64,000 bases of DNA from a phage, in sequence record NC_135729.1. The stretch is one strand, 5' to 3'. Positions 9,505 to 48,664 of this stretch are shown here, piece by piece. The notes below the pieces were generated by a model. It saw only the letters and a list, made by a program, of their open reading frames with translations, was not told the origin of the DNA and did not search any database. The position numbers and the translations under genes are program-made. The stretch's first letter is position 1. Every line of letters starts with the position of its first letter.

Positions 9505-10512
9505 TTATTCACCTTTCAGAGTTGCTTTAACAACCAGCTCTGGACGGGTGTTAACTGCCAGCATGGAAGTTTCAGATTCAATCTTCTCTTCACGCAGGTA
9601 TGCAGAGTGTTTATACCACATATACAGTTCCTGTGCTGGGGTATTTGCTTCGTTAACATCATCTGCCGGAGCAAAGTGCAGCTGGAACATCTGATCAATA
9701 CCCATCGGCAGAATGCGAGCTTCTTTCTTAGGAATATTGCCAGAGATATCTTCGATAAAGGTGATACCTTTATGTTCGAACACACGATAAACGCTGTCCT
9801 GACCGCCAGCACCCAGACGACGACGCAGAGGTTCCTGAGCAGAGCCGTAGTAGGTGTATGCCAGTTCTACCAGCGGGTGGTGAGTGATTGCACTGAAGAA
9901 CTCAGGAGAGCACAGAGCCACGATACGGTAGCCAGCAGCGTTGTCACCAGCTTGCAGGGCGATATGCAGACGAGCGTCTTCCAGAACTTCCATCGGGTCC
10001 TGATCTGCTTTCGCTGGATCAATTTCTACAGATTTCTGGGACACACCCCACAGAGTGTAGTAATCATACTGACAGGTGGTGTCACCTGGTGCATAGGATT
10101 TACCCAGAATAGCCTGGAACAGCGCTTTCTCACGCAGTGCTTCATGAGAAACACGGATACGGCGAACAACGCGGGTTACTACGTCCTGAACAGTTTTCGG
10201 AGCATCAGGGGTGAAGTAACGACGGAAGTTCTGAACATCTGCTGCGGTGATGCCTTTGTCCAGAGGGAAGAACGGGATGTTCAGGTTTTTAACCTGAGCA
10301 CGTTCACTACCAACGTAATTACGCTCACCACCACGACGGCGTGCCGGAATGTCGGTTACAACTTCATCAACACGCTCGATCTGAGCAATCGTTGAGGTGC
10401 CGAGACGGGTTTCGAACAGATCCATACCAGTAATCAGTCGGAATTGGCGCGGAACAAGGTCCAGAGTAGCACCTAAATCAACAATGCCAAATTCATCTTT
10501 ACGAGTAATCAT
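9505..10512 (-). CDS. major capsid protein
   Basis: 335 aa; follows scaffold and decoration-like genes and is followed by a strong terminator; size as lambda-E-type capsid proteins. Confidence 0.6.
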   Translation of the reverse strand: MITRKDEFGIVDLGATLDLVPRQFRLITGMDLFETRLGTSTIAQIERVDEVVTDIPARRRGGERNYVGSERAQVKNLNIPFFPLDKGITAADVQNFRRYFTPDAPKTVQDVVTRVVRRIRVSHEALREKALFQAILGKSYAPGDTTCQYDYYTLWGVSQKSVEIDPAKADQDPMEVLEDARLHIALQAGDNAAGYRIVALCSPEFFSAITHHPLVELAYTYYGSAQEPLRRRLGAGGQDSVYRVFEHKGITFIEDISGNIPKKEARILPMGIDQMFQLHFAPADDVNEANTPAQELYMWYKHSAYLREEKIESETSMLAVNTRPELVVKATLKGE

Positions 10513-10560: not shown

Positions 10561-10950
10561 TTACTCTTCACCAAGAGTCTGGACCTGAACCTTGTTACCC
10601 AGAGCCTCAAGCTTGTCTAACACAGCCTGTTCTGCTTTAGCACCACCAGTTGCCAGCAATTTATCCTTGGCAAAAGTAACACCACGCACAGCAACAACCA
10701 GTTTATATTTCTTTGTGCCAAGAGGTTCAGCGATATGTACTTTACCAGCAGCGTCCGGAATTAAAGCACGATCCACCAGAACGCCATAGGCGTCTGAACC
10801 GTCCTGATTGGCAATGCTACCATCTTTGGTCACAACCGTGCCAGCATGATGGTGCTCTGTCAGTGTAATTTCCATCTCTTTAAAATTGTAGCCAGCATCG
10901 CTAGAATCAACTTTGCCGAGCACGATATCAGAATATTGAGCGGTAATCAT
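10561..10950 (-). CDS. putative head decoration protein
   Basis: 129-aa ORF immediately upstream of capsid gene, size and composition like gpD-type decoration proteins. Confidence 0.4.
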   Translation of the reverse strand: MITAQYSDIVLGKVDSSDAGYNFKEMEITLTEHHHAGTVVTKDGSIANQDGSDAYGVLVDRALIPDAAGKVHIAEPLGTKKYKLVVAVRGVTFAKDKLLATGGAKAEQAVLDKLEALGNKVQVQTLGEE

Positions 10951-10970: not shown

Positions 10971-11948
10971 TTATTTGTTAGATTCTGCACGTGCACGAGC
11001 AAGTGCTTTTGCAACGTTTTCAGCAAGAATTTCTTCTGCGGATTTTGCAATATCATCCACAACAGGTTCGCCATCATTACCATGTTCAGTGGTGGCAAAC
11101 TCTTCTTTAGTTTTATGCACCTCTGCTTCCAGCTCTTCAATTTTTGCTTGAGCTTTCTCCAGCATAGCTACGATAGGTTCGTTAGCTTTTTCCAGCATGA
11201 AGTCAACCAGTGTTGCGTGATCTTCTTCACCAACAAAGCTTAAAGCTTGAGCCTTAGTCAGCATTTTAGCTTTTTCAACTTCAACCTGGGCCTTGATGAT
11301 TTCTTCAGCTTTACTCTGGGTTGCTTTCAGCTCTTCTACTTGCTTCAGCAGATCCAGATACTCTTTAGTTTTGGTTACGTCCACCGGATTCTCCTCGGTA
11401 TTTGCGGATTTTGCAACATCATCCACCTCGGTAGTTTTATCCACCTCAGCAGGTTCCTGTACCGCCTTGATCAGGTTCCCTTCTTTATCGAAGAGATCAG
11501 CGGTTACTTGTTCAAAAATCTGTTGTGTTTTTAACAGACTGTACTGATCTACCACACTAAGCTGCTTGCCTTCTTTTGCAGCCTTATGAATGGTCACGTT
11601 ATCACAACGCTCTTCCAGCCATGCAATACAAGACTCTGCGTCAGCTTGCGCCCATTCCCAATCAGGATGCTCTTTAGCCCAAGCCTCCTCTTCAATCTCA
11701 AAACCAAGCATGTGTGCAAGTGCTTTAGCATCATCATACCACATATCGAAGAAACGACGCAGGTATTCTTCAAAACTAAGCTCCACAGTAACTTGGCGAA
11801 GTGCCTTAACAATATCGTCTGTTAACTGCTCAGGCTTAAGATCACTCTTCATCAAAAGAGATACAGGTCTGTTGTTAGCGCTATAGCCTTGCGCCTTGTG
11901 GCACAGGGCAATCCCCTTCTCTTTAATAGTAATCGTTTTTTCAGACAT
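10971..11948 (-). CDS. putative scaffolding protein
   Basis: 325 aa, acidic, long predicted coiled-coil C-terminal half; between portal/protease and capsid genes. Confidence 0.45.
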   Translation of the reverse strand: MSEKTITIKEKGIALCHKAQGYSANNRPVSLLMKSDLKPEQLTDDIVKALRQVTVELSFEEYLRRFFDMWYDDAKALAHMLGFEIEEEAWAKEHPDWEWAQADAESCIAWLEERCDNVTIHKAAKEGKQLSVVDQYSLLKTQQIFEQVTADLFDKEGNLIKAVQEPAEVDKTTEVDDVAKSANTEENPVDVTKTKEYLDLLKQVEELKATQSKAEEIIKAQVEVEKAKMLTKAQALSFVGEEDHATLVDFMLEKANEPIVAMLEKAQAKIEELEAEVHKTKEEFATTEHGNDGEPVVDDIAKSAEEILAENVAKALARARAESNK

Positions 11949-12379
11949 TATTCATTGCCCTCTTCTACAACACTGATCCCGAAGTTTACGTTGGTAATTT
12001 CACCAGTTTCTTCATCAACATTACCTGTTGCCTGAATGCTTAGGCCACCAACAATGCCAGCCTTCTTAGCTTCCCATAGTTCAGGATTATTGTATTTAAC
12101 TTTAGCAACCCAAGAGCCAGCCTTGATGACCTGCTCAGTGCCAATTACTACAACATCAAACTCTTCTTGAATCCACGTCTTTTCAATGGTGAAAGCATCT
12201 GTAGAGGTCAAGTGGAAAAGGTTCTCAGAAACTAGGCCTGCGGCGTATGCTGCGTCCCAGTTATCTTTGGCCTTTTTGATGGTGTCTTTACTCATCCACT
12301 CACCGTGAGCATCTTTAGTGTCAGGTTCGTAGATGATTTCGTAGGAAATCATTTCTTCCTGTGGCATCTTATTCCCCAT
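11948..12379 (-). CDS. putative prohead protease (XkdF-like)
   Basis: Start set at internal Met (MGNKMPQEE); EPDTKDAHGEWMSKDTIKKA resembles the XkdF-family protease N-terminal motif; located after portal gene. Confidence 0.4.
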   Translation of the reverse strand: MGNKMPQEEMISYEIIYEPDTKDAHGEWMSKDTIKKAKDNWDAAYAAGLVSENLFHLTSTDAFTIEKTWIQEEFDVVVIGTEQVIKAGSWVAKVKYNNPELWEAKKAGIVGGLSIQATGNVDEETGEITNVNFGISVVEEGNE

Positions 12380-12434
12380 GTGGATTATTTTATCACGCCA
12401 AAGGAGGTTTTGCAACCCCCTGTGTTGATAATTT

Positions 12435-13991
12435 TTAATTTTCCATGTTGGATATGGAATTATCTCTGGTTGATGACATCTTAGAAGTGCCGTTGCCAGT
12501 GGATCCTGCAGCCATTCCATCACCAGCCCTACTGATGTCCTGGCCCAAGAGCTTCATCAGCTCTTCCTGATCCATGTCCTCGTCAAATCTTTCATCAAAC
12601 CCGCCTACTTCAAGAATCTTATTAATTACTGCAGGAGTTTTTGGCAAGTAACCTACAGCACCGATCCTCTGGACAAACTTGGAGAAGCTCTCCATGTCCA
12701 CCTCTTCAATCAGACCAGGTTTCAGTTTAGGCATATCATCATCTTCAAGGATGATACCATTCAATGCCAGAAGCTGTGGAATAAGATCTTTATTGAAGGC
12801 CTCAGTGATAATATCTATATCACGCTGAACAAAATGACCATGGATAGACTGTTTTGACTCAGACAGAGAGAAGGATCCAACGTTATCGTTACCGAGGTTA
12901 ATAAAGCCAGCACCGAAACGGTCAAGAATCGCCTTCTTACGGGCATCAATCAAATCTTTAGTGGAATACTGCTTACCCATACCGTCAACCCCCTTCAGGG
13001 TCATGGAGTAAAGCTCTTTACCAGACTTATCTCTGTCAGACGGAAGTATAAAGAAACTTTGCTCACCACTATGGGCGTTTGCTGCGTCAAGCATAAGGTC
13101 TGCAACCATTCTCCCTTCCATTGAATTCGGGTCAATGCTGGCCTTGTTCAAAATATTGGAAGGAATTTTCAGCTCAAGCACACCACCAAGGTCTTTGGAA
13201 CAGCCAACAACCTCAAGGTTTTCAATCAGAACTTTCTCACGGAAAGATCTGTAGCAACCTATCATCGGTGACACACCTGCAGGGTTAGATTCTGTTCCTG
13301 ACAGGGTCATGAGCATAAGCTTTTTAGCAGGGATGAAAATTTCAGGCTCATTAAAGCCTTTTGAAGGCATTGCAGCAAGAGGTCCAGCCCAGCGTGCATT
13401 CTGAGTGTTTAGAAATGCATTAGGTGACTGATAAATACCTGTCAGTGTTCTACTATTCTTGTCAAAAACAAACGGCTCTGATCTGGACAAACTAGCCTGA
13501 GGTCGGAATGCAATTTTATCAATAAGAAGCATCCCGGCATATTTACCTTCTCTCTCTCTGCGGTATACTTTCTCAAACAGTGAAAAACCATACTCGTTAA
13601 AGGTAGCTGCGCTTCTTGCAATATCTCGAAGAGTTTGTTGGTTTGCCAAATTACGCAAAGAATACTCTATAAGCTCGGCAGCTTTCTTAGAGTCTTCACT
13701 TTTAACATTATAAAGGATCTTAAAATCATTAAATGCTTTCGTGATGAAAACATATTTTGTATCTAAGGCAGTAGCAACTGTGGAATCACATTTCATAGTC
13801 TCCACTGTAGCAATCAGCTGAGGCCAACGCAATTCCTCAACCATCATAGATTGCGACTCTGCCATAATTTGGGAAAGTGCGCCAGAACCGATCTCACTCA
13901 TACGAACATTATGAGTTGGTGCGCCTGCGTTCCCAGATTTATTCACAGTTTTGGCTGTGGCGTTGTGTTTCCTGCGGTTCTTTTTGGACAC
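12435..13991 (-). CDS. portal protein
   Basis: 518-aa ORF immediately downstream of large terminase. Confidence 0.6.
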   Translation of the reverse strand: MSKKNRRKHNATAKTVNKSGNAGAPTHNVRMSEIGSGALSQIMAESQSMMVEELRWPQLIATVETMKCDSTVATALDTKYVFITKAFNDFKILYNVKSEDSKKAAELIEYSLRNLANQQTLRDIARSAATFNEYGFSLFEKVYRREREGKYAGMLLIDKIAFRPQASLSRSEPFVFDKNSRTLTGIYQSPNAFLNTQNARWAGPLAAMPSKGFNEPEIFIPAKKLMLMTLSGTESNPAGVSPMIGCYRSFREKVLIENLEVVGCSKDLGGVLELKIPSNILNKASIDPNSMEGRMVADLMLDAANAHSGEQSFFILPSDRDKSGKELYSMTLKGVDGMGKQYSTKDLIDARKKAILDRFGAGFINLGNDNVGSFSLSESKQSIHGHFVQRDIDIITEAFNKDLIPQLLALNGIILEDDDMPKLKPGLIEEVDMESFSKFVQRIGAVGYLPKTPAVINKILEVGGFDERFDEDMDQEELMKLLGQDISRAGDGMAAGSTGNGTSKMSSTRDNSISNMEN

Positions 13992-14093: not shown

Positions 14094-15641
14094 TTAGATA
14101 AAACGCTTGAACATAGAAGGTGATGAGATTGATGGAATCACACAAGGAAGTGCTACCTCCTCTTTCTCCAGGAAATTAATCGCAGAAGCTACACAGTCGG
14201 CCCAGTCGTCTTTCCTGTTAAATGTTGATCTTTCCCCGTTGAATTTTTCAAGTTCAGTCAGAAATGCTTCCAGAGTATCAGGATGGAAACTGGATTTTAC
14301 AATCCTAACCATTCCTTGTTGGGCAAGATTGGCAAAAGGTGAGAACCTTGTCAGTTTAGATTTGTTGGAAGGCATTGGGTCTTCTTCAACCCTAAACCCT
14401 TCGGCGAGCAAGGATCTGGAGGATGTTAAGAACTCACTCTTACCTGCCTGACCGGGGTCCACAGAGAATACGATTATACAATCATCACCATCAAACTGCG
14501 CCTGTTTCCTGATGATCACATCTCGTTCACCAGCCTTTTTACAGAACTTGCCTTCCAGACCTGTGGAATACCTCCCGTCATCCACGTTCTCAGGACAATA
14601 ATCACCGGACAGGTAATAAAAGCCGTCGCTATCTTTACTTACCTTAACACTGGCGGTAAAGTCAGGAAATTTATTACCGGAAGTTCTCTCGGTTCCTGCC
14701 TTATCCCATGCCCTGCAAGATACTGATCCAAGGGGTACTCTATCGGCATCACGAAGGAAAGATCTTTGAAAATAGTTTGCACCCTCAGGCTTTGCAAACC
14801 AGTTGCCATGAAGAAGCTGGGCTTTTTCAAGCTCGGGCAGACCTTCAAGAAAAGCAAGGTATTCTGGGTTGTCTCTCAAGCAGACAGGATTATCGAAGAT
14901 TGTTGCGCCTATAAACGAGAATGACAACGGTCTTGGCTTGATCTCCACACCCAGTCCGTTAACCGTGGTGTATTTCTCTATCAACTCTTCTTTAGAGTCT
15001 CCCCAGATAAATTCACCGTCGCGTCGGATAAAATATCTTTTCTTACCGCATTTCTCCGGATCTGGATACCCTTCATCGTCCAACCACCATCTAACCAGTT
15101 TGGCAAGCATGTGTTCTGAATCTGGGTTACAGCTGATAACCATTCTTGATGGATACTTTGACTGAGATCGCAGACGAGACATCAGATAGTCTATCTGCTC
15201 CCATTCGAACTGCGTTCCCTCATCGAAGCAAACCATGGTGTACTCAAGCCCTTGATGGTTAAGCTTATCTTGTACATACTCCATGTGGCAGTATTTTACA
15301 ACAGCTCCCTTTTTGCTCCTATCCCACTTGCCAGTGTTCGGATCAAACCGTGGAAAAATGAACTTATGATCCTTCTCTCTGAACTTTGGCTTAATGTTTT
15401 CAGGCAGATCACTATAAATAGCTACTGCTTTAGGCCATAGTCCACCCTCACCTTCCAACTGTGGGGTTGTTCTTCGGAACATAACCACAGAGCTGTGGGG
15501 GTCATCAATAATTTTAAGTGGCATCAACTGCAAGAGGAACGACTTGCCAGACCCTGCGGCACCGCCGATTACCAAAATATCTGCATCGTTTTCTAGGATC
15601 ATCTTCTGCTTTTCAGAACACGGTCCGTAAATCTTAGACAT
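14094..15641 (-). CDS. terminase large subunit
   Basis: Walker A GGAAGSGKS near N-terminus, Walker B-like VCFDEG, 515 aa. Confidence 0.85.
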   Translation of the reverse strand: MSKIYGPCSEKQKMILENDADILVIGGAAGSGKSFLLQLMPLKIIDDPHSSVVMFRRTTPQLEGEGGLWPKAVAIYSDLPENIKPKFREKDHKFIFPRFDPNTGKWDRSKKGAVVKYCHMEYVQDKLNHQGLEYTMVCFDEGTQFEWEQIDYLMSRLRSQSKYPSRMVISCNPDSEHMLAKLVRWWLDDEGYPDPEKCGKKRYFIRRDGEFIWGDSKEELIEKYTTVNGLGVEIKPRPLSFSFIGATIFDNPVCLRDNPEYLAFLEGLPELEKAQLLHGNWFAKPEGANYFQRSFLRDADRVPLGSVSCRAWDKAGTERTSGNKFPDFTASVKVSKDSDGFYYLSGDYCPENVDDGRYSTGLEGKFCKKAGERDVIIRKQAQFDGDDCIIVFSVDPGQAGKSEFLTSSRSLLAEGFRVEEDPMPSNKSKLTRFSPFANLAQQGMVRIVKSSFHPDTLEAFLTELEKFNGERSTFNRKDDWADCVASAINFLEKEEVALPCVIPSISSPSMFKRFI

Positions 15642-44815: not shown

Positions 44816-45604
44816 ATGGGTCGAGCTAAAGAAACAAAACGCATGCGTGATGAAGCTAGAGAGGCTCGCAAATCTGATCGCCTGCGTAAGGCTGCTGAGA
44901 AATTTGCTGACGAAAGAGAGCACACCGCTCCAGCTCTCCGACCAATGAATAAGAAGCAGCAAAAGTATCTTGATTATCTAGGGTCACGTAAGATTATTAT
45001 TGTAAACGGTGTGTTTGGATCCGGTAAGACATTCATGGCATCTGCATATGCAGGTGATCTTCTGCGTAAGAACGAGATTGATAAGATTATTGTTGCACGT
45101 CCTTACGTTCAGACAGGAAAGACTTCAGGATTTAAACCTGGAAATGCAATGCAGAAACTGTGGCCCTATCTTCGAAGCATGATGGACACGATTTGTCGTC
45201 GTGTTGGCAAAGGTGCTTTTGCCGCAATGCTGGGAGACGGTCAGAACAGCCGTATCGAGATTTGTGAAGTTGAAAGCATTCGTGGTCGTAGTTTCGATGA
45301 GCGATGCTTTGTCCTGATTGACGAGGCACAGCAAACTAACCCTGAAGAAATGTTGTCAATTATCACAAGGATCTCTGATCAAGCCACCCTTGTAATTATG
45401 GGTGATAATAGCCAACGTGACATCCCTGGTAAATCTGGCCTTGCATGGGTGACGGATTTCTTTACTCGTCATCCAGATCCTGAGGTTGGAATGATCAGCT
45501 TTGATAGTCCAGACGATGTCGTTCGTTCTGGGTTGGGTCGTCAGATCGCACTCAATCTTATTGAGGATCGTGCAAATCATATTTGGACCCCTGTTTCCGA
45601 GTAA
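44816..45604 (+). CDS. phoH: PhoH-like ATPase
   Basis: Walker A GVFGSGKTFMA and overall PhoH-like layout, 262 aa. Confidence 0.75.
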   Translation: MGRAKETKRMRDEAREARKSDRLRKAAEKFADEREHTAPALRPMNKKQQKYLDYLGSRKIIIVNGVFGSGKTFMASAYAGDLLRKNEIDKIIVARPYVQTGKTSGFKPGNAMQKLWPYLRSMMDTICRRVGKGAFAAMLGDGQNSRIEICEVESIRGRSFDERCFVLIDEAQQTNPEEMLSIITRISDQATLVIMGDNSQRDIPGKSGLAWVTDFFTRHPDPEVGMISFDSPDDVVRSGLGRQIALNLIEDRANHIWTPVSE

Positions 45605-45648
45605 TACAGAAGGGTGGTTATTCCACCCTTAAATATCTAAAACAGTTG

Positions 45649-45677
45649 TTGACAAATAGGTAAGCTTTAGATATTAT
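45649..45677 (+). promoter_or_regulatory. sigma70-like promoter
   Basis: TTGACA, 17-nt spacer, TATTAT; preceded by hairpin AAGGGTGG-ttatt-CCACCCTT. Confidence 0.55.
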
Positions 45678-45705
45678 TATCGGACAAAACAGAGAGAAGG
45701 ACAGT

Positions 45706-46017
45706 ATGGCTACAATACAAGAGAAACTGAATAAAATATACTGCCTGTTTGTCTATAACGGCGAGACAATTTTGGCAAATAAGGGATCCAAGAATGTGTG
45801 GACCAAGGACAGCGGTGGTAATATAATTAACTTAGCGTTGCTACGTGAGCGCCGACACAGATTCTTTATCGAGTCTCGAATTATTGAAAGCAGCACTTGC
45901 TACAGAACAGGCGATAAAGTAATTGTTGACAATGATACGTGGTATGTGGTAGACTGGCAATCATTGAGCTGTGATGCTTCTGACAATCGTAAGTATTCCA
46001 TAGTGATTGCTAAATAA
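45706..46017 (+). CDS. hypothetical protein
   Basis: 103-aa ORF downstream of promoter. Confidence 0.4.
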   Translation: MATIQEKLNKIYCLFVYNGETILANKGSKNVWTKDSGGNIINLALLRERRHRFFIESRIIESSTCYRTGDKVIVDNDTWYVVDWQSLSCDASDNRKYSIVIAK

Positions 46018-46077
46018 AGGTAAATGTGAATCAGGTTTAAATAAATAGCTTTCAACTTCCAATATTAAGGATTTCTC

Positions 46078-47127
46078 ATGAATTTAACACCTCGCAGCAC
46101 CATGGTACACGGCATGAAAGAAAAACAGAACGGTTTCGAACCTATGAGTAATAAAATGTTTGGTATGCCGGGTGGTATTATGGAAACATACAGCTACCCA
46201 ACACCTGTTGTTGACCACGTTCTTTATATCGACGATTTGGAAGACTTACAAGATCATATGTCTCGTCTGCAGACGATCCGTATGGCTCAGCCGGAAGAAA
46301 GCATTCGGGTGATCATCAATAGCCCTGGGGGTTGCGTGCACATTGCAATGGCCTATCTGCAGGCATTCCGCGAGTCTCAGGCAAGCGTTGTTGCACATGC
46401 TGAAGGGATGTGCTGCTCTGCTGGAACAATCTTATGGCTTGGTTGTAAAGAACGTACTGTGGCTCCGGACACAGAGTTTATGTTCCACTACTATCAAGGT
46501 GGCACTTATGGTAACGGTGTGAACATGAATACTCAGGTCAGCTACTGGAAAAAACGTTTTGAACGCCTGATCGAAAAATACTACGGTGGGGTGCTAACAG
46601 AAGATGAGATCGCATCCATCACAGCTGGTGGCGAAGTGTGGTTGGACGGAGAAGAGCTGGCAGCACGCACTGGAGCTATTATTCTGGATGAAGGCAACAT
46701 ACAACGCATCCAGAACGGACAAAAACCGAAAAAGCTTCTGGCAAAAGGTGATGAAGAAGGCGTGTTAGGTGAAGCAGGTCTTCCGGAGATTCACCAGTGC
46801 ACATCTTTAGATGAGTTAGTTCATGCTGTTGAATCTGCAAAAGCGGGTGGTTCGAAAGGTGATGTTCACACTGTGCTCCTGAATCTGCAGATGGAGAGTG
46901 GCGAGACCGTCAGAATTGCCCTGGGTGAGATTACTTCAGAAGATCTGCAGAGATTCTCTGTCGTTGAACTTCAGGATATTCTGTCTCAATTGAAGACTAC
47001 TCTGAACGGCGGTGAAGAGGTTAAGGTGAAAGATAAGACGCGCAAGCGTCTGGTGGACAATATTATTAAAACAGCAAAAGAGCTCAATGAAAAAATCCTG
47101 GGTGCAGGAATTGTCGAAGAAGCTTAA
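46078..47127 (+). CDS. ClpP-like serine peptidase with C-terminal extension
   Basis: INSPGG motif, catalytic-Ser context GMCCSAGT, His in EFMFHYY; about 150-aa acidic C-terminal extension. Confidence 0.6.
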   Translation: MNLTPRSTMVHGMKEKQNGFEPMSNKMFGMPGGIMETYSYPTPVVDHVLYIDDLEDLQDHMSRLQTIRMAQPEESIRVIINSPGGCVHIAMAYLQAFRESQASVVAHAEGMCCSAGTILWLGCKERTVAPDTEFMFHYYQGGTYGNGVNMNTQVSYWKKRFERLIEKYYGGVLTEDEIASITAGGEVWLDGEELAARTGAIILDEGNIQRIQNGQKPKKLLAKGDEEGVLGEAGLPEIHQCTSLDELVHAVESAKAGGSKGDVHTVLLNLQMESGETVRIALGEITSEDLQRFSVVELQDILSQLKTTLNGGEEVKVKDKTRKRLVDNIIKTAKELNEKILGAGIVEEA

Positions 47128-47138
47128 ACATTAATTCT

Positions 47139-47162
47139 AAAGCCCTCTTCGGAGGGCTTTTA
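47139..47162 (+). terminator. intrinsic terminator
   Basis: AGCCCTC-ttcg-GAGGGCT followed by TTTT. Confidence 0.6.
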
Positions 47163-47178
47163 CGATCTGGAGATTTGC

Positions 47179-47712
47179 ATGACTTGTGCTAGAAAACCTG
47201 ATGAACAACGTAACGCCTACGATGAGTATGTGACACCGGAGTGGTGTGCAGAAGGGCTGTATGACCTTATTCCGTTCCCAGAAGACTGGACCTACTTAGA
47301 GCCTTGCAGGAATAGTGCCTCAGGTGTGTTCTACTCCCGTATGCCGTTAGGATCTGCATGGGGAGAAATACAAGAAGGTGTTGACTATCTGAATACAGAA
47401 TACAACCATGTTGACTGTATTATCACCAACCCACCATACAGCCTGGCTCGTGAGTTTGTAGACAAGGCGTTGAAAGATGCTGACGTAGTTATTATGCTTT
47501 TGCGTCTTAATTTTCTGGAAAGCAAAGCCAGATTTGAATGGTGGCTTGATAATGCACCTACTACTGTGATCACAATATCTAAGCGTCCATCATTTCAATC
47601 AAACGGCAGAACTGACGGGCAAGCATATGCATATTTTGTGTGGGATAAGAAAAACCGTTTAGACTTGCCGCCGTTTATGTGGTTGGCACCCCCAGAGGTA
47701 GACCTGAAATGA
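47179..47712 (+). CDS. small N6-adenine DNA methyltransferase-like protein
   Basis: Motif I-like EPCRNSASGVF and motif IV DCIITNPPYS; 177 aa. Confidence 0.5.
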   Translation: MTCARKPDEQRNAYDEYVTPEWCAEGLYDLIPFPEDWTYLEPCRNSASGVFYSRMPLGSAWGEIQEGVDYLNTEYNHVDCIITNPPYSLAREFVDKALKDADVVIMLLRLNFLESKARFEWWLDNAPTTVITISKRPSFQSNGRTDGQAYAYFVWDKKNRLDLPPFMWLAPPEVDLK

Positions 47713-47993
47713 AAATGAGTGCTAAGGACAAATTACACCAGCTGGCGCTAAAACGCCCTGTAACGCTCCCTGACGAGCTTAACTCCATTTATGATGCGAT
47801 TGTAGGGGAGATACAAAATAAAGCGTTAGCAGGCTTTCTGGGGTGCGGATTTTCGATAAATCTACCCTCGCATTTCTCAGATTACTTCCCGCACATTGTT
47901 GGAGATTTAAGGGCAGGAGGTCTGCAGGTAGATGTTGTTGGCATCTCCCCAGAGAAAAATAATACGGTTGCCTACTTGACAGTAACCTGGTAG
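47709..47993 (+). CDS. hypothetical protein
   Basis: Start at internal Met MKMSAKDK. Confidence 0.3.
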   Translation: MKMSAKDKLHQLALKRPVTLPDELNSIYDAIVGEIQNKALAGFLGCGFSINLPSHFSDYFPHIVGDLRAGGLQVDVVGISPEKNNTVAYLTVTW

Positions 47994-48029
47994 TTGTGTA
48001 TTGTTGTTTTCAACAAGAGGGGGTCATTT

Positions 48030-48269
48030 ATGTACAAGTCATTTTCAATCTACTCAAGACAGGCGAAACACTACACAGAGATCCTGATCACTCAGAAAAA
48101 ATCTGTAGAAGGTGAGTGGGAATATCACCATAAAATGTTGCGTCCAGACTGGGTTTTTGATAGACTTATTGCTATGATCCCTCTCGGAGAAGTATACCCT
48201 CTGACAGCCCATCGCGATGCTTGGGATTTAATTGATTACATAGATTCATTTAAGGAGCCTAGATTATGA
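48030..48269 (+). CDS. hypothetical protein
   Basis: Start at Met MYKSFS with AGAGGGGG SD. Confidence 0.35.
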   Translation: MYKSFSIYSRQAKHYTEILITQKKSVEGEWEYHHKMLRPDWVFDRLIAMIPLGEVYPLTAHRDAWDLIDYIDSFKEPRL

Positions 48270-48664
48270 AGATTGAGATTACTAAAGAAGGTAAGAAAGT
48301 GTCCGGCAACTATGCAACAGTAATTCGGGATTTAATGTTTGAAGCCACCAAGATCGGTACATCTAAAGTTGGTCAAACTGTTAGTGTGAAAAGTAATATC
48401 TCCACAGGAGAGAAGGTATTCATTGTGGTCAAAGGGCAGGATCCCGTGGAAGGAACAGTGGGCCGAGGTGGCTACCTGTGCATTTCTGAAGAGCCGCGTA
48501 TGTTAGTGGCTGACGCTACTATGGGTGGGAAACGTGTGTGCGAGGCGGATGAGGTAATGATTATCCAACCTGTTGATCCAGATGACCCAGCAACTTGGGT
48601 GGTAGGAAATGAAATCTTCTCTTTAGAAGAGTTATCCTTCCCAGCACCGCGCTCTGTTCAGTAA
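48266..48664 (+). CDS. hypothetical protein
   Basis: 132-aa ORF, coupled start. Confidence 0.4.
   Translation: MKIEITKEGKKVSGNYATVIRDLMFEATKIGTSKVGQTVSVKSNISTGEKVFIVVKGQDPVEGTVGRGGYLCISEEPRMLVADATMGGKRVCEADEVMIIQPVDPDDPATWVVGNEIFSLEELSFPAPRSVQ

Follow-up and report, generated by a model that had tools for sequence, protein, structure and literature searches.

What does a ClpP-like peptidase do among the nucleotide-metabolism genes of a phage that carries a separate protease in its head module? This question is raised by positions 46078 to 47127 (plus strand) of sequence record NC_135729.1, of which we analyzed a stretch of 64,000 nucleotides, hereafter the window. The window comes from an rV5-like Escherichia phage (Vequintavirus); phages slur16 and slur12 are 99.6% identical to it across 45000-48500, and more than 100 database records are at least 90% identical to the same region. 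We propose, with moderate confidence, that the gene encodes a non-morphogenetic peptidase of ClpP fold that works independently of ClpX and ClpA, is co-expressed with DNA-metabolism genes, and chooses its substrates or partners through a private C-terminal module.

The gene corresponds exactly to an open reading frame (ORF) of 349 amino acids with an ATG start in the list of ORFs for the window, and it is preceded by a ribosome-binding site:

46078..47127, plus strand: ClpP-like peptidase gene, 349 amino acids; rV5 gp117/ORF122; phrog_5410
46067..46071, plus strand: ribosome-binding site AAGGA, 7-11 nucleotides before the ATG, read from the letters; a ribosome-binding site is annotated at the same place in phage Murica

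To judge by its sequence, the product is the orthologue of rV5 gp117/ORF122, and it is 99% identical to relative P0001 and to rV5-group proteins. The ClpP-like gene itself is not new, having been annotated since the publication of the rV5 genome. Members of the gp117 family are named 'ClpP ATP-dependent protease subunit', 'ATP-dependent protease' or 'ClpP-like protease' in the databases, and a ClpP or ATP-dependent protease annotation is carried in more than 100 Vequintavirus genomes. The protein is 96-99% identical in about 118 Vequintavirus genomes and 40-70% identical across the subfamily, which points to purifying selection on the gene.

We place the protein in the ClpP (S14-type) superfamily; it fits no curated definition of either a cellular ClpP or a head-maturation protease. 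It matched Pfam CLP_protease (PF00574) above the gathering cutoff (E=2.1e-12, 47.7 bits versus 20.2), it is a full-length member of phrog_5410 (rV5 gp117) with no difference from that family (E=1.7e-154; residues 24-345 on profile positions 4-322 of 323), and its core matched phrog_1827 (E=2.6e-40). The names of these two PHROG families ('ATP-dependent protease', given to non-structural phage ClpP-like proteins) read as homology labels. Solved ClpP chains in the PDB were matched at E~1e-7 by sequence search, and hhalign aligned the core to Escherichia coli ClpP with a probability of 96%; identity to this ClpP is about 20-23%. In an AlphaFold2 (AF2) model built on 24 family members, residues ~41-220 form a core with a predicted local distance difference test score (pLDDT) of about 90-95, and residues 1-40 and 223-240 score below 50. 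All of the top 50 Foldseek matches of this model in the PDB are genuine ClpP (E ~1e-10, TMt 0.65-0.74), aligned over about 170 columns that include the handle helix. From the N-terminus onward, the gene encodes:

46078..46197, plus strand: N-terminal 40 residues, predicted to be disordered, of variable length among relatives (AF2 pLDDT <50; alignment A1)
46198..46737, plus strand: ClpP-fold catalytic core with handle helix, residues ~41-220 (AF2, Foldseek, hhalign)
46738..46806, plus strand: flexible acidic linker, residues ~221-243, variable in length and sequence (pLDDT <50 at residues 223-240; gapped columns in alignments A1 and A2)
46807..47106, plus strand: orphan C-terminal module, residues ~244-343, in which a helix and a beta-hairpin are followed by a short helix and two long ones

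The phage protein resembles bacterial ClpP (S14, PF00574; E. coli ClpP, PDB 1TYF/6WR2) in its fold and handle helix (TM ~0.7), in a handle strand rich in Gly, in the oxyanion-loop motif INSPGG and, at the active site, in the nucleophilic Ser and the His that acts as general base. It differs in adding about 130 amino acids, namely the linker and the orphan C-terminal module, and in having no recognizable N-terminal gating loop. Equivalog and subfamily models of cellular ClpP gave 21-39 bits against cutoffs of 228-361 (among them TIGR00493 and PRK00277, with 33-39 bits against 228-309). For the S49 type, Pfam gave no match to Peptidase_S49 (PF01343) at E<=1, and the NCBIfam model SppA_dom reached E=0.02 and 14 bits against a cutoff of 155. 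Comparison of S14 with S49 profile hidden Markov models (HMMs) thus gave a ClpP/S14-like result without any S49 signal. A recent capture of a host clpP gene was also considered, and we rejected it on the grounds of the ~20% identity and the better scores of phage models.

The bounds of the ORF and the ClpP hallmarks that an initial annotation of this DNA had picked out are borne out: INSPGG lies at residues 80-85, GMCCSAGT at residues 110-117 (with Ser114) and FMFHYY at residues 134-139 (with His137). Conservation was read from alignment A2, which holds 24 long-form relatives at 40-70% identity, and from alignment A4, which spans 7 distant genera at 20-28% identity (rV5-like, phiTE, ICP1, Pakpunavirus, Otagovirus, Barbavirus and Sugarlandvirus). 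The catalytic positions are the following:

46417..46419, plus strand: codon of Ser114, equivalent to the ClpP nucleophile Ser97 (hhalign); invariant in 24/24 long forms and in the 7 distant genera
46486..46488, plus strand: codon of His137, equivalent to ClpP His122 (hhalign); invariant in 24/24 long forms and in the 7 distant genera
46633..46635, plus strand: codon of Glu186, at the position of ClpP Asp171; the column holds Gln in 20 and Glu in 4 members of the family

We found no equivalent of the catalytic Asp171 itself: the residue is Glu186 here, Gln in 20/24 long forms and E/E/D/E/E/Q/D in the 7 distant genera, with the register of this column set by hand and by MAFFT from the alignments, not from coordinates. 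Residues of the handle strand are conserved (Q140, G141, G142, G145, G147 and N149), and the position of the ClpP inter-ring sensor Arg170 is an invariant Gly in the family. The invariant Ser and His, together with the substitutions at the Asp171 position, would fit a catalytically active Ser-His enzyme whose third residue departs from the canonical one. We propose that the gene product may be an active, self-compartmentalizing serine peptidase of ClpP fold, in which Ser114 and His137 would be completed by Glu186, or by Gln, in place of Asp.

If the protein is such a peptidase, does it work with the ATPases that serve bacterial ClpP? In E. coli ClpP, the pocket that receives the IGL/IGF loop is built from L48, F49, A52 and F82 of one protomer and from L23, Y60, Y62, I90, M92, F112, L114 and L189 of its neighbor (bioRxiv 10.1101/820209), and the general role of these ClpP 'H sites' has been described (PMC9035409). 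Mapping covered all of these residues except L189, which was not mappable, and gave the following replacements (E. coli ClpP first, phage family second):

Y60: R77, in 24/24
Y62: V or I, hydrophobic character retained
F82: E99, in 24/24
I90: H107, in 24/24
M92: E109, in 24/24
F112: T127, in 24/24
L114: S or A, variable
L23: H or P, variable
L48, F49 and A52: 5-residue deletion, with uncertain gap placement

Seven well-anchored pocket residues are replaced, six of the seven by polar or charged residues, and five of these six by residues that are invariant in the family. The pocket positions are also polar in the distant genera ICP1, Pakpunavirus, Otagovirus, Barbavirus and phiTE, as read from A4. 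We did not find the hydrophobic H site for the IGF/IGL loops of ClpX and ClpA in the phage protein, and among the rV5 proteins there was no recognizable Clp-type AAA+ unfoldase, the only signals being sub-threshold P-loop matches for gp004 and a kinase-like match for gp077. Since the pocket is replaced by polar and charged residues, canonical dependence on ClpX or ClpA is unlikely. On these alignments, the canonical docking site appears to be absent, with an invariant charged patch in its place, and the label 'ATP-dependent' would be a homology transfer that is contradicted by a defining feature, so that the name is probably wrong. We suggest that the peptidase may not be the core of a standard ClpXP or ClpAP machine, and that R77, E99, H107, E109 and T127 may form an invariant polar surface where the IGF/IGL-loop pocket would otherwise lie.

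The two ends of the protein depart furthest from ClpP. Residues 1-40 are disordered and unaligned, and the first ClpP residue covered by the hhalign alignment is residue 20 (mature numbering). At the other end, the acidic extension without a recognizable motif, to which the initial annotation had drawn attention, is real: residues ~221-349 lie beyond the ClpP fold with a net charge of about -9 (24 D+E versus 15 K+R), and Pfam matched the extension in none of 19 members. The C-terminal module is conserved within the family and contains three invariant residues (F293, E297 and R322). A search with its profile against 1.84 billion cluster representatives returned only 5 matches, all from the same family, and the two short ones among them are truncated gene calls. 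P0041 (144 amino acids) was examined as a possible stand-alone version of the module and rejected, because its start falls within the ClpP-like core and the gene call is truncated. In the phrog_1827/ICP1 group the extension is either missing, as in Pakpunavirus (182 amino acids), or unrelated, as in the similarly long ICP1 ClpP-like protein (326 amino acids; hhalign probability 0.3%), and phiTE retains only the first half of the module. These comparisons suggest that a common catalytic core carries lineage-specific tails. The C-terminal strand of ClpP forms part of the apical pocket (L189 and R192; bioRxiv 10.1101/820209), and the phage tail should therefore sit on the ATPase-docking face. We propose that the flexible acidic linker and the private module of about 100 amino acids would lie where the ClpP C-terminus emerges, beside the pocket on the apical face of the ring. 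There, the module would most plausibly be an adaptor built into the protein, through which substrates, or a partner, are chosen for the degradation of cytoplasmic proteins or peptides of the host or of the early phage program.

The surroundings of the gene point in the same direction. It lies, as the initial annotation had it, among metabolic genes, in a block that encodes ribonucleotide reductase, ThyX, PhoH and a methyltransferase, and it forms part of a short transcription unit of its own outside the head operon:

44816..45604, plus strand: PhoH-like P-loop ATPase gene, 262 amino acids (Pfam PhoH, E=3.6e-47), 0.5 kb upstream of the ClpP-like gene
45649..45677, plus strand: sigma-70-type promoter TTGACA-17-TATTAT, 11/12 matches in a consensus scan; equivalent to the annotated P121 of rV5
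45706..46017, plus strand: small ORF of 103 amino acids, rV5 gp116, phrog_5456 (E=2e-39), co-transcribed with the peptidase gene
47139..47161, plus strand: terminator-like hairpin AAAGCCCUC-UUCG-GAGGGCUUU, followed by U, found by RNA folding; annotated as a terminator in Murica

The separate terminator claimed for the gene was recovered as this hairpin, which lies 3' of the stop codon and has a GC-rich stem of 9 bp (dG -14.7 kcal/mol, z -2.9) with only a short U run; a strict terminator scan missed it, as it falls below the T-run criterion of that scan. The small ORF has no Pfam match, and its homologues are weakly conserved (28-36% identity) just before the ClpP-like gene in many Vequintavirinae loci. 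PADLOC matched neither the peptidase nor the small ORF to a defence system. The upstream genes encode ThyX, NrdAB, glutaredoxin, NrdD, NrdG and PhoH, a DNA methyltransferase and many small ORFs follow downstream, and the order PhoH, small ORF, ClpP-like gene, methyltransferase is conserved as a block. The ClpP-like genes of Pakpunavirus and ICP1 likewise sit among replication genes, and a neighborhood of replication and nucleotide-metabolism genes is common to phrog_5410 and phrog_1827 (PVP-SE1, phiTE_141, the ICP1 ClpP-like protein and Pakpunavirus orf40). Relatives on viral contigs fall into three groups: long forms on Vequintavirinae-like contigs of 90-150 kb, many short forms amid replication genes (QueE-like, FEN, primase-helicase, DNA polymerase, clamp and clamp loader), and at least one true fusion within a head module (L029). 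We propose that the peptidase would be made in the infected cell alongside the nucleotide-metabolism and replication genes, and would not be a component of capsid assembly.

A role in capsid assembly was nevertheless weighed in detail, as the core resembles those of known head proteases. Some 32 kb separate the ClpP-like gene from the head module, which is encoded on the other strand:

14094-15641, minus strand: large terminase (TerL)
12435-13991, minus strand: portal
11948-12523, minus strand: XkdF-type Peptidase_S78_2 (PF14550) prohead protease (Pfam, E=1.1e-17)
10971-11948, minus strand: scaffold-like protein (phrog_2970)
10561-10950, minus strand: decoration protein
9505-10512, minus strand: lambda-E-type major capsid protein (MCP)

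A separate protease candidate, which had been noted earlier in the head operon, is indeed present and is the XkdF-type enzyme between the portal and the scaffold-like gene. Its ORF as listed has a GTG start and overlaps the 3' end of the portal gene by 89 nucleotides, with the Pfam match beginning at residue 53. For this same protease, the labels of rV5 gp063 (RefSeq) and of phrog_1530 say 'DNA methyltransferase', which looks like a propagated mis-annotation.

Could the ClpP-like protein be a second, trans-acting morphogenetic protease, which matures heads or clears scaffold from a gene away from the head operon and is carried into procapsids by its C-terminal module? We consider this unlikely. 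Of the curated NCBIfam models, NF045542 ('head maturation protease, ClpP-related'; 2e-16) matches best and outscores every model of cellular ClpP, and as the closest curated profile it leaves room for a morphogenetic origin or role. Several PHROG families of head-maturation proteases also match at 1e-14 to 1e-22, with phrog_1684 aligning through residue 256. The phage protein shares a ClpP-like core with the head-maturation proteases (NF045542; lambda gpC-type; Felix O1 gp56), and some of these, like it, bear C-terminal extensions, which in their case are scaffold-like; ClpP-type proteases fused to a C-terminal scaffold or capsid domain do exist (L029, NF045540), and the module is helical and acidic, as scaffold tails are. 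However, all head-protease HMM scores are below their cutoffs, there is no match to Peptidase_S49, and the gene lies outside the head module. The canonical slot between portal and scaffold and MCP is already occupied by the XkdF-type protease, whose orthologues have been detected in virions of the Vequintavirinae relatives W70 and CB7, whereas the ClpP-like protein is missing from three virion proteomes. The rV5 virion list of 19 proteins does not include ORF122 (PMC3606486 Table S5). The 28 proteins of W70 virions include the XkdF-type 'capsid maturation protease' (phrog_1530) and phrog_2970 and no member of phrog_5410 (PMC11370258), and the CB7 list contains a 21-kDa prohead protease and no Clp protein (PMC7344957). 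The ClpP-like protein was thus neither found processed in virions nor grouped with S49-type prohead proteases. There is also little processing left to explain. In mass spectrometry of rV5 virions an MCP peptide begins at residue 4-5, which indicates that the lambda-E-type MCP is not processed at its N-terminus, and W70 virions contain the phrog_2970 protein in abundance (913 spectra), so that this protein may stay in the particle as an internal or capsid component and not be a discarded scaffold. Finally, the neighborhood of PhoH and replication genes is conserved across lineages whose head modules are unrelated.

Several observations weigh against the cytoplasmic, ClpX/ClpA-independent peptidase that we favor. 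The top rank of NF045542 among curated models is one of them, even at a score below cutoff (60.4 bits against 120). With Gln as the third triad residue in most relatives, activity could be low or specialized. The pocket was mapped by sequence alignment with hhalign, not from coordinates, with the MAFFT register in agreement, and the placement of the gap over L48, F49 and A52 is uncertain. Early or middle timing is read solely from the promoter consensus, and sigma-70-like promoters occur throughout the rV5 genome. Absence from virions is weak evidence, because the rV5 list is short (19 proteins) and because self-digestion and exit from the capsid are common among prohead proteases. A literature search found no functional work on phage ClpP homologues, be it on this protein or on close relatives, and the transcriptome paper on PAK_P3 does not mention the ClpP-like gene. 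The initial annotation had further suggested that the enzyme acts on host proteins instead of the prohead. Its checkable parts hold, and this last step, drawn from the location of the gene and the absence from virions, would be one possible outcome of the role proposed here.

The gene next to the transcription unit raises a different possibility. In 16 of 17 long-form loci the ClpP-like gene is preceded by a PhoH gene of the same orientation (tblastn, 1.4-2.8 kb upstream), and so it is in phiTE, ICP1, Barbavirus, Otagovirus and L027/L028; with Alteromonas phage V22, where PhoH adjoins the ClpP-like gene, the distances span 0-3.4 kb. An upstream PhoH gene on the same strand thus occurs in at least six lineages (Vequintavirinae, ICP1, Barbavirus, Otagovirus, two unrelated contigs of 125-178 kb, and V22). 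This linkage could reflect shared ancestry of the replication module or a functional pairing. In the second case, PhoH and the ClpP-like peptidase would be a conserved functional pair of large virulent myoviruses, with PhoH as the nucleotide-driven partner that replaces ClpX or ClpA, its docking site being either the C-terminal module or the polar, invariant patch of the apical face. We regard such a pair as improbable; the suggestion comes solely from gene order, PhoH is an SF1-helicase-like P-loop protein and not an AAA+ unfoldase, and many relatives have the peptidase with no PhoH gene near it (Pakpunavirus, Sugarlandvirus, T5-like phages, L023 and the marine short forms). If it were true, PhoH, a widespread viral 'marker' gene, would gain its first concrete function, in targeted proteolysis. 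In Pseudomonas phage psageK4, gp049 (L007 3148-3879), labeled 'putative Clp protease', is in fact a PhoH homologue (tblastn, 30% identity over 261 amino acids to Barbavirus PhoH), and the true ClpP-like gene is the adjacent gp048, labeled 'putative serine protease'.

We find it very improbable that the database annotation is right as it stands, that is, that the protein is an ATP-dependent Clp subunit that joins host ClpX or ClpA, or replaces host ClpP, and redirects regulated proteolysis during infection. The fold, the handle helix, the Ser/His pair and the Pfam CLP_protease match above threshold are what such a subunit would show, and ClpP E26, which makes an electrostatic contact to the IGL loop, aligns with an invariant D46. 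These features are outweighed by the five anchored pocket positions, which are invariantly R/E/H/E/T instead of Y/F/I/M/F and polar in the distant genera too, by the uniformly low scores of the NCBIfam ClpP models and the low identity to E. coli ClpP, and by the lack of a detectable counterpart of the N-terminal gating hairpin and the invariant Gly at the Arg170 sensor position. Least probable of all is a decoy or poison subunit whose ring stacks on or mixes with host ClpP heptamers and shuts down or re-routes ClpXP and ClpAP, for example to shield phage proteins: conservation of the ring-ring handle strand and helix with loss of the ATPase-docking face would suit it, and mycobacterial ClpP1P2 is a precedent for asymmetric ClpP complexes, but Ser114 and His137 are strictly conserved across very great evolutionary distances, which argues for catalysis over mere blocking, the ~20% identity to host ClpP makes specific hetero-assembly doubtful, and the hosts of the family span Vibrio, Pseudomonas and E. 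coli.

To return to the proposed ClpX/ClpA-independent peptidase with a private module: the gene itself is unremarkable and has been catalogued for a long time, and the useful outcomes are a revised expectation of ATPase dependence, an orphan domain and the linkage to PhoH. With the partner-docking surface gone, the name 'ATP-dependent Clp protease proteolytic subunit', copied over hundreds of phage genomes, is probably misleading. The genes compared here would make up a class of ClpP-like genes within phage replication modules, often beside PhoH, and their substrates could reveal a step of host takeover or proteome remodeling that is common to many therapeutic phages (rV5-like, PAK_P1-like and ICP1).

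Two minor observations concern the window as a whole. The large terminase is encoded here by one uninterrupted ORF of 515 amino acids, where the rV5 annotation joins three pieces around an inserted HNH endonuclease gene. GC skew changes sign at about 21-22 kb and about 58-60 kb, the same points at which the coding strand switches between structural genes, which run leftward, and genes of replication and metabolism, which run rightward.

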